From a virus, in the UHGV virus genome UHGV-0105900: 10,850 bases of DNA; one strand, given 5' to 3'. Every line of letters begins with the position of its first letter. Position 1 is the first letter of the stretch. The position numbers and the translations under genes are program-made. Shown in pieces: positions 2,846-5,906 of the stretch. The notes beneath the pieces are model-generated. The model saw nothing but the letters and a program-made list of their open reading frames with translations. It ran no database searches and had not been told where the DNA came from.

Positions 2846-4198
<1,353 letters not shown>

Positions 4199-4317: not shown

Positions 4318-4596
4318 ATGCAACTTACAAGTACTCGCAAGAAAGCGAATGCAATTACAAGCAACATCCTGAATCGAATTGCTGTACGTGGTCAGCGAAA
4401 GGTTGCCGACGCGTTAGGGGTTAATGAATCGCAAATTTCGCGATGGAAAGACAGCTTCATCCCCAAAATGGGAATGCTTCTGGCTGTTCTTGAATGGGGT
4501 GTTGAAGACGAGGAGTTGGCGGAACTGGCTAAGCAAGTAGCCAGAATGCTGACAAAAGAAAAAGCCCCGAAGAACGGCGAATTCTTCGAGGCCTGA
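4318..4596 (+). CDS. cII: CII-like transcriptional activator (lambdoid, diverged from lambda CII)
   Basis: 92 aa; SQISRWK...IPK..MLLAVLEWGV core shared with recalled lambda CII; AAGGA SD; start is the internal ATG of track ORF 4258-4596. Confidence 0.85.
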   Translation: MQLTSTRKKANAITSNILNRIAVRGQRKVADALGVNESQISRWKDSFIPKMGMLLAVLEWGVEDEELAELAKQVARMLTKEKAPKNGEFFEA

Positions 4597-4630
4597 TGTA
4601 GAAAGACTGGATCAATCCACAGGAGTAATT

Positions 4631-4792
4631 ATGACAAAACGTCGTAAGAAATACCAGGAAAAAGAAGAGATTCGACACCCTGATTCACCTGAGGGATTAG
4701 TGGTAGCCGCAGCAAATAACAGGGCGTTCGCAGAACGCCTTGTTGGTGTTTACAGACTAGCCAAAGCAGGAGTGAAACATGGGCGTCGTTAA
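4631..4792 (+). CDS. Hypothetical basic small protein (53 aa); possible 5' remnant of the replication-initiator gene or an independent small gene
   Basis: Strong SD AGGAG 6 nt upstream of the ATG; MTKRRKKYQEKEEIRHPDSPEGLVVAAANNRAFAERLVGVYRLAKAGVKHGRR; 3' end overlaps the Q start by 14 nt; below the ORF-track cutoff. Confidence 0.45.
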   Translation: MTKRRKKYQEKEEIRHPDSPEGLVVAAANNRAFAERLVGVYRLAKAGVKHGRR

Positions 4793-5471
4793 GTTAGCTG
4801 ATTACAGGCCTCAACTGGAGGTCGTGGAGCATCGCGTGGCAGATAACGGGAGTTCGGGAAGCGTAGCTAAATTTCATTCGCCAAAAAGCCCGATGATGAG
4901 CGACTCACCACGGGCTACGGCTTCTGACTCTCTTTCCGGTACTGATGTGATGGCTGCTATGGGGATGGCGCAATCACAAGCCGGATTCGGTATGGCTGCA
5001 TTCTGTGGTAAGCACGAACTCAGCCAGAACGACAAACAAAAGGCTATCAACTATCTGATGCAATTTGCACACAAGGTATCGGGGAAATACCGTGGTGTGG
5101 CAAAGATCGAAGGAAATACTAAGGCAAAGGTACTGCAAGTGCTCGCAACATTCGCTTATGCGGATTATTGCCGTAGTGCCGCGACGCCGGGGGCAAGATG
5201 CAGAGATTGCCACGGTACAGGCCGTGTGGTTGATATAGCAAAAACAGAGCAGTGGGGGAGAGTTGTTGAGAAAGAGTGCGGAAGATGCAAAGGTGTCGGC
5301 TATTCAAGGATGCCAGCAAGCGCCGCATATCGCGCTGTAACGATGCTAATTCCAAACCTCACCCAACCCACCTGGTCACGCACTGTTAAGCCGCTGTATG
5401 ACGCTCTGGTGGTGCAATGCCACAAAGAAGAGTCAATCGCAGACAACATTTTGAACGCGGTCACACGTTAG
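4779..5471 (+). CDS. Q: Lambda-type Q late-gene antiterminator (with a different N-terminal ~26 aa)
   Basis: From SVAKFHSPKSPMMSDSPRATASD... to ...ESIADNILNAVTR nearly identical to recalled lambda Q, including the Cys-rich zinc region CRDCHGTGR...CGRCKG; AGGAG SD 6 nt before the ATG at 4779. Confidence 0.88.
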   Translation: MGVVKLADYRPQLEVVEHRVADNGSSGSVAKFHSPKSPMMSDSPRATASDSLSGTDVMAAMGMAQSQAGFGMAAFCGKHELSQNDKQKAINYLMQFAHKVSGKYRGVAKIEGNTKAKVLQVLATFAYADYCRSAATPGARCRDCHGTGRVVDIAKTEQWGRVVEKECGRCKGVGYSRMPASAAYRAVTMLIPNLTQPTWSRTVKPLYDALVVQCHKEESIADNILNAVTR

Positions 5472-5513: not shown

Positions 5514-5542
5514 TTGACTTTTTGAATAAAGTTGGGTAAATT
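5514..5542 (+). promoter_or_regulatory. PR'-like late promoter (-35 TTGACT 5514-5519, 17-bp spacer, -10 TAAATT 5537-5542) with Q-utilisation region
   Basis: ATATTGACT...GTTGGGTAAATTTGAC closely matches the recalled lambda PR' sequence directly downstream of Q. Confidence 0.75.
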
Positions 5543-5888: not shown

Positions 5889-5906
5889 CGGCCGCATCAG
5901 CGGCCG
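5889..5906. terminator. Perfect 7-bp GC hairpin (CGGCCGC-ATCA-GCGGCCG) between convergent units; probable terminator, possibly bidirectional
   Basis: Followed on the plus strand by TATCTCTTT; lies 8 nt downstream of the gtrC stop on the minus strand. Confidence 0.5.

Follow-up and report, generated by a model that had tools for sequence, protein, structure and literature searches.

The open reading frame (ORF) of 53 codons at positions 4,631 to 4,792 of UHGV virus genome UHGV-0105900 (10,850 nucleotides, the whole stretch being called the window here) is most probably an intact HK97 gp53-family gene, namely the first cistron in a module composed of gp53, a replication initiator and a DnaB-type helicase, and is carried in the window as a passive relic; we give this reading a probability of about 0.8. 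The ORF is already known as a member of an annotated phage gene family, and what the present analysis adds is the evidence for purifying selection on this family, together with a conserved RNA hairpin within the ORF. For the window itself the significance is small, since a common, annotated prophage gene has been found in a dead prophage. The gene and its two neighboring translation signals are located as follows.

4631..4792, plus strand: small ORF, an intact HK97 gp53-family gene, with ATG at 4631 and TAA at 4790-4792 (53 aa)
4621..4625, plus strand: Shine-Dalgarno (SD) sequence AGGAG of the 53-aa ORF, placed by the sequence, by alignment with lambda cII-O and by PMC3349717
4768..4781, plus strand: initiator start, read from the sequence, with AGGAG at 4768-4772, the 6-nt spacer TGAAAC and ATG at 4779, inside the 3' end of the ORF

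The peptide, MTKRRKKYQEKEEIRHPDSPEGLVVAAANNRAFAERLVGVYRLAKAGVKHGRR, covers 53 of the 53 positions of phrog_1331 in a PHROG profile comparison (E 1.4e-37) and is 100% identical to ST104 orf27 and to Sf6 gene 42 (gp42), which is annotated as 'gene 42, Phage HK97 53 protein homolog'. The HK97 gp53 gene has 162 bp, as has the window ORF, and the two differ by a single base, a synonymous GAA-to-GAG change. When 50,697 phage records were searched by tblastn, the peptide was found in 97, in 61 of them at no less than 99% identity, and the phages with a near-identical ORF include Sf6, ST104, mEp213, HK544, HK446 and several Stx2 phages. Of 5,426 complete E. coli genomes, 571 (~10%) contain the DNA of the ORF, whose RefSeq entry is WP_000166961.1, a hypothetical protein. 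In HK97, Sf6, ST104 and the Stx2 phage 1717, the ORF is a stand-alone annotated gene located 5' of an intact initiator gene. The window ORF agrees with the HK97 gp53 family in sequence, length, ribosome binding site (RBS) and overlap with the following gene. The module context of the family is lacking at the window locus, where the helicase gene and ori have been deleted, and this loss of the helicase leaves the membership of the ORF in the family unaffected.

The family is narrow. A profile search over 1.84 billion representative proteins yielded only 24 clusters, all of 29-84 aa, with no larger annotated relative among them; Pfam and NCBIfam searches with the peptide or its profile gave no match, Phage_rep_O included, and a sequence search of PDB gave no relative. 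AlphaFold (AF2), used with the family alignment, predicts a disordered and basic stretch in the N-terminal 20 residues and a helix at residues 21-49 (pLDDT 70); the model, which is of moderate confidence, is essentially one kinked helix and carries little information, and Foldseek found no match for it in PDB. In the searchable literature on the gp53 family we found no experimental study of expression or function. Two of the collected loci, L003 ('Bacillota bacterium MAG') and L006 ('Chryseobacterium sp.'), carry the gene within typical enterobacterial lambdoid sequence, and contamination or misbinning of these contigs is probable.

Because the window contains 70 ORFs of at least 40 aa, a length of 53 aa is unremarkable and the reality of the ORF rests on its conservation. 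For the comparison, 17 loci from different species, mostly Enterobacterales (Edwardsiella, Trabulsiella, Yokenella, Enterobacter, Citrobacter, Chimaeribacter, Serratia, Rahnella, Brenneria and others), were taken from a genome collection; one of these has the window ORF unchanged and the other 16 have diverged from it (57-91% identity). Each of the 17 retains an ORF of 52-55 codons that begins with ATG, and the indels among the homologs are whole codons. In the window and 15 differing homologs, the gp53 frame contains no stop codon, against 26-55 stops in each of the five other frames. The summed entropy at codon positions 1, 2 and 3 is 30.7, 20.7 and 63.4, respectively, the third being three times the second. 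Nei-Gojobori dN/dS against the window ORF is 0.06-0.27, with a median of 0.155 over all pairs. The pN/pS ratio is below 1 throughout, ranging over segments from 0.16 to 0.55, with its lowest values (0.16-0.23) at residues 13-38, which reach beyond any overlapping signal. The gp53 ORF is thus a real protein-coding gene under purifying selection. Within the window lineage no selection is visible, related strains being ~100% identical over the matching parts of the region.

A sequence-only reading of this DNA had described a strongly initiated, basic 53-aa ORF, and the composition of the peptide (14 K+R against 6 D+E, pI 10.7) bears this out. The SD that it named, AGGAG, is also correct; the spacing that it gave, 6 nt, belongs to the ATG at 4779, and the spacer of the 53-aa ORF is 5 nt (TAATT). 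It had further placed the ORF where lambdoid phages begin their initiator gene, and this agrees with the alignment to lambda, in which window positions 4606-4641 are near-identical to the O start, forming a boundary sequence of 33-36 bp that holds the AGGAG of the ORF. A ribosome initiation region is therefore common to the 53-aa ORF and lambda O. The SD, the ATG and the first codons are near-identical in both, a pO -10 lies over the ATG, and an oop-type RNA ends inside cII; in lambda, however, this start opens O itself, whereas in the window it opens a cistron of 53 codons and the initiator begins 148 nt further on. The layout cII-oop-orf-O-P has been published, in the searchable literature only by Hayes 2012 (PMC3349717), and it has been described that the 33-bp conserved oop/pO segment includes the ATG and that lambda is naturally without the small ORF that P22 (orf48) and HK97 (gp53 homolog) have (Hayes et al., PMC3349717). 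The Sf6 annotation carries 'bsq5' at the SD region of the small ORF. Two signals of the opposite strand adjoin or overlap the start of the ORF.

4553..4620, minus strand: oop-like antisense RNA, from a terminator scan, fold z -5.4, alignment with lambda and PMC3349717
4628..4636, minus strand: pO-like extended -10, TGTCATAAT, the same sequence as in lambda

The oop-like RNA, whose 5' end was set by homology to lambda oop, contains two hairpins, and its terminator stem (4594..4562 plus a U tract) lies within the 3' end of cII. Rfam searches over this region gave no family and no match to the OOP model; a weak rsmX match at 1615-1750, the only one in the window, was below threshold and was taken as chance. 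The pO-like -10 overlaps the ATG and codon 2 of the 53-aa ORF, just as it overlies the O ATG in lambda, and divergent loci appear to keep a -10-like hexamer at the pO site, including loci in which the ATG has moved by one codon.

The overlap between gp53 and the initiator gene is conserved. The last 14 nt of the ORF (4779-4792) overlap the initiator gene from its ATG at 4779, and such an overlap is found in 19 of 19 loci (14 nt in 17 and 17 nt in 2), with the GGRG motif of the initiator SD embedded in conserved A/S-G-V-K codons of gp53. The initiators 3' of gp53 have a Phage_rep_O domain from residue 19-21 in 8 of the 10 tested, the others being of the Sf6 gp43 type. The gene following the initiator encodes a DnaB-like N-terminus in 17 of 18 loci, as judged from sequence and not by family search, and is annotated as DnaB helicase or gp12 in HK97, phage 1717 and ST104. 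The gene 5' of gp53 is usually cII, with exceptions among the loci; because this upstream gene varies, the stable unit is composed of the small ORF, the initiator and the helicase, and gp53 is linked to this replication module. As a separate observation, the Phage_rep_O-type and Sf6 gp43-type initiators, which are unrelated families, have a common N-terminal decapeptide, MGVVKLADYR (first 10 codons, loci L002-L019). Since it is common to both types, the mosaic boundary falls within the initiator gene, and the start of that gene moves together with the small ORF.

These data are consistent with the following course of events in an intact phage. The gp53 gene would be translated from the pR early-right transcript at the RBS that lambda uses for O, and its product would be small and basic, combining a disordered tail rich in Lys and Arg with an amphipathic helix. 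Because the gp53 stop is placed 11 nt past the initiator ATG, ribosomes finishing gp53 would be delivered to the initiator start. Such translational coupling, which the sequence-only reading took the 14-nt overlap to imply, is suggested by the conservation of the overlap in all the loci, and we infer that it occurs; against the need for it, the initiator has a good SD of its own. The protein itself would have a part in early replication, or in controlling it, and its binding target would probably be nucleic acid or a replication protein. Selection at the protein level, linkage to the initiator and DnaB-type helicase genes and the conserved RNA hairpin make gp53 a small and tractable subject for work on how lambdoid replication is controlled.

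Another signal lies within the coding region of gp53.

4717..4745, plus strand: RNA hairpin of 13 bp with a GCA loop (-19.7 kcal/mol), over codons 29-39, fold z -5.5

This hairpin is kept better than codon constraints predict. Codons 29-39 under it include the invariant FAER motif, and in its 8-bp core positions 4722-4729 pair with 4733-4740. Pairing is found in 88.7% of cells over the 17 divergent sequences, whereas controls with slid partners reach 38-47%; for the core the count is 132 of 136 cells, compared with 106.6 +/- 3.1 after synonymous resampling and 123.4 +/- 2.1 when synonymous codons were permuted among the sequences, the observed value being reached by neither null in 5,000 trials; since the sequences are mutually related, these counts overstate the number of independent events. 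Covariation is seen between the codon of Arg36 and that of residue 32: CGC or CGT occurs with Ala (GCN), and CGG with Pro (CCG) or Ser (TCT). Because many of the pairs are G.U on the plus strand, the hairpin is read as plus-strand RNA, and a minus-strand or DNA element was rejected on the same ground. An intrinsic terminator was likewise rejected, as the U tract is weak and is not kept in relatives and the scan made no call on the plus strand. Masking of the initiator RBS by the hairpin or by other structure is unsupported: the minimum free energy structure of the window pairs the initiator SD/AUG region, this pairing is absent from the consensus fold of the 17 sequences, and no conserved structure sequestering the RBS was found in that fold.

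In the window, the gene that follows the ORF has been reshaped by two deletions.

4779..5471, plus strand: chimeric ORF of 230 aa, composed of O(1-22), NGSSG and lambda-type Q(5-207)
4779..4844, plus strand: remnant of the HK97-type O/gp18 initiator, codons 1-22 (MGVVKLADYRPQLEVVEHRVAD), identical to residues 1-22 of the E308 and HK97 O proteins
4844..4862, plus strand: two deletion joints, from alignment with E. coli E308

The window ORF is a passive relic in a replication-dead E. coli prophage located between sbcB and dacD. The strains E308 and PSS-10 have the same decayed prophage between these two genes; there, an initiator of 265 aa corresponding to HK97 O residues 1-264 comes after the small ORF and is joined out of frame to Q codon 5. 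The joint between O codon 264 and Q codon 5 (~4859-4861 in the window) is the older of the two; this deletion took the last codons of the initiator, the helicase gene, the nin region and the first four codons of Q. The other joint, T4844/A4845, is that of a lineage-specific deletion of 710 bp inside the initiator gene, with TA microhomology, and at ~4844-4846 it lies 52-54 nt 3' of the stop of the 53-aa ORF. A frame-shifted piece of O codons 259-264, read as NGSSG, is left between the joints, and because 710 is not a multiple of 3, initiator codons 1-22 fall in frame with NGSSG and Q 5-207. The two nested deletions together took away ori as well as the helicase gene, the nin region and the first four codons of Q, and by chance brought the initiator start into frame with Q.

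Residues 1-24 of the chimera match positions 1-24 of phrog_345. Identity to lambda-type Q begins at residue 28, which is Q residue 5, and extends over 200 of 203 residues (99%), with the Antiterm domain recognized at E 2.4e-57 (PF03589); Q residues 1-4 have been replaced by 27 foreign residues. The 230-aa 'Q' of the window is thus a deletion-made O'-'Q chimera, a lesson for annotation. The overlap of 14 nt that the sequence-only reading assigned to the start of Q does exist, and the start that is overlapped is the native ATG of an HK97-type O/gp18 initiator, in agreement with the phrog_345 match. As one contiguous piece, the chimera junction is in no complete E. coli genome, and the adjacency of the small ORF to Q is therefore a lineage-specific accident. 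Antitermination by Q-lambda depends on a torus formed by residues 1-44, and proteins with residues 1-38 deleted or with the V6A substitution are defective (PMC9388147). Because this N-terminus is needed, a Q translated from the internal Met start that is annotated in E308 would be defective. The second, 710-bp deletion gave an SD-led start back to a Q that had lost its own. Downstream, the lambda pR' promoter (TTGACT, 17 nt, TAAATT; 5514-5542) is retained nearly unchanged, and conservation with lambda continues to ~5572; the stretch from there to 5913 diverges from its lambda counterpart and includes a GC-rich hairpin (5889-5906), which stands ahead of gtrC, a convergent gene on the opposite strand. 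Since the divergence past pR' leads into the opposite-strand gtrC, no late genes are left for Q.

The window ORF has the RBS of HK97 gp53, Sf6 gene 42 and ST104 orf27, follows cII/oop as they do and, like them, overlaps the initiator by 14 nt. Unlike in these phages, the initiator of the window is cut to 22 codons and fused to Q, and ori and the helicase gene are gone; because of this loss, any replication-linked role of the ORF is void in the window.

Several other explanations of the ORF were weighed against the intact gp53 gene. The sequence-only reading proposed that it is the 5' stump of a replication-initiator gene left by a deletion of the replication and nin regions, and in fact the prophage has such a deletion and the ORF begins at an RBS and ATG homologous to the lambda O start; this proposal nevertheless retains practically no probability, because the same 53-aa ORF precedes full-length initiators in many intact phages, the peptide is without a Phage_rep_O match, and the true initiator stump is the first 22 codons of the next ORF, where the joints lie at ~4844-4862. 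Being a separate cistron between cII and a full-length initiator in intact phages, the ORF is not a truncated initiator; with the full-length phrog_1331 match and the stand-alone genes of HK97, Sf6, ST104 and phage 1717, the idea that the peptide is simply the first 53 codons of a replication protein is contradicted as well, since stand-alone conservation is found instead and no Pfam initiator match. The same reading alternatively suggested a retained small regulator, and this is right in the weak sense that an intact, conserved phage gene has been retained. That its retention serves the control of Q, through coupling of its translation to Q expression, is very unlikely: the stop of the ORF does overlap the start of an ORF ending as Q, but this adjacency is limited to the window lineage, in E308 and PSS-10, the nearest relatives, 710 bp of initiator sequence intervene and Q is out of frame, the partner of gp53 in all the phages is the initiator, and late genes for Q are absent. 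The link to Q is a deletion accident of this lineage, and regulation by the ORF is not upheld.

Doubt about the peptide itself deserves somewhat more weight. The ORF might be kept for its overlapping DNA and RNA signals and for the act of translation that couples ribosomes to the initiator, the peptide being inert. The overlap of its 5' end with the pO -10, the hairpin conserved beyond codon constraints and the initiator SD and ATG within its 3' end are all in accord with this, as is the non-homologous 48-aa ORF of P22-type phages in the same slot, from which the slot may outweigh the sequence. We regard it as unlikely, however, because amino acids are conserved where no signal overlaps (residues 13-29, pN/pS 0.23), third codon positions are free to vary while first and second positions are not, and a length of 52-55 aa is held across genera. 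It is more doubtful still, and quite improbable in our estimation, that gp53 and the hairpin of its own coding region form a cis/trans control device for initiator synthesis, in which the Arg/Lys-rich N-terminal tail would bind either the hairpin or the oop/cII-O RNA close to it, and the number of ribosomes reaching the initiator start would depend on how the ORF is translated. If true, such a device would tie early replication to pR translation and oop antisense activity, and would be a phage counterpart of the leader-peptide and antisense control of plasmid rep genes, with a functional peptide in addition. In the plasmids R1 (tap-repA) and ColIb-P9 (repY-repZ), leader peptides are coupled to rep genes; the end of the short ORF overlaps the initiator start, and a small antisense RNA is encoded nearby. 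The gp53 stop likewise overlaps the initiator start. In contrast to the tap and repY leaders, the gp53 peptide is constrained (dN/dS ~0.15), conserved masking of the initiator RBS was not found in the consensus fold, and the antisense RNA, placed by homology to lambda, would begin just 5' of the SD and would not cover it.

The intact gp53 gene has an analog in P22, where orf48 (DUF2740), lying between c1/oop and gene 18, has the slot, the boundary sequence and the RBS in common with gp53. Like gp53, orf48 encodes a basic product (48 aa) and overlaps the initiator start (by 8 nt), and is followed by gp18 and the helicase gene. Homology between the two was rejected (hhalign probability 0.05), and they are analogous, not homologous. 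The slot between cII/oop and the initiator thus hosts small conserved ORFs, gp53 in HK97 and orf48 in P22. In the P22-like Salmonella phage SF3 (L026), a DUF2740 ORF of 48 aa, also basic, is present at 2585-2731 with an 8-nt overlap on gene 18; the slot region of this phage folds more stably than shuffled sequence (z -2.4), and one stem pairs the gene 18 start.

Decay of the prophage differs among strains. The window has cI and cro and is without the 710 bp of the initiator gene; PSS-10 and E308 have these 710 bp, and cI and cro are absent from them. In E308, an ISKox3 insertion adjoins gtrA. On the minus strand of the window, an ORF at 2846-3322 is located directly 3' of cI and overlaps its end; it has no Pfam match and contains a signal-peptide-like stretch, and it could be a prophage-expressed secreted protein or lipoprotein, for example one with an exclusion or conversion function.
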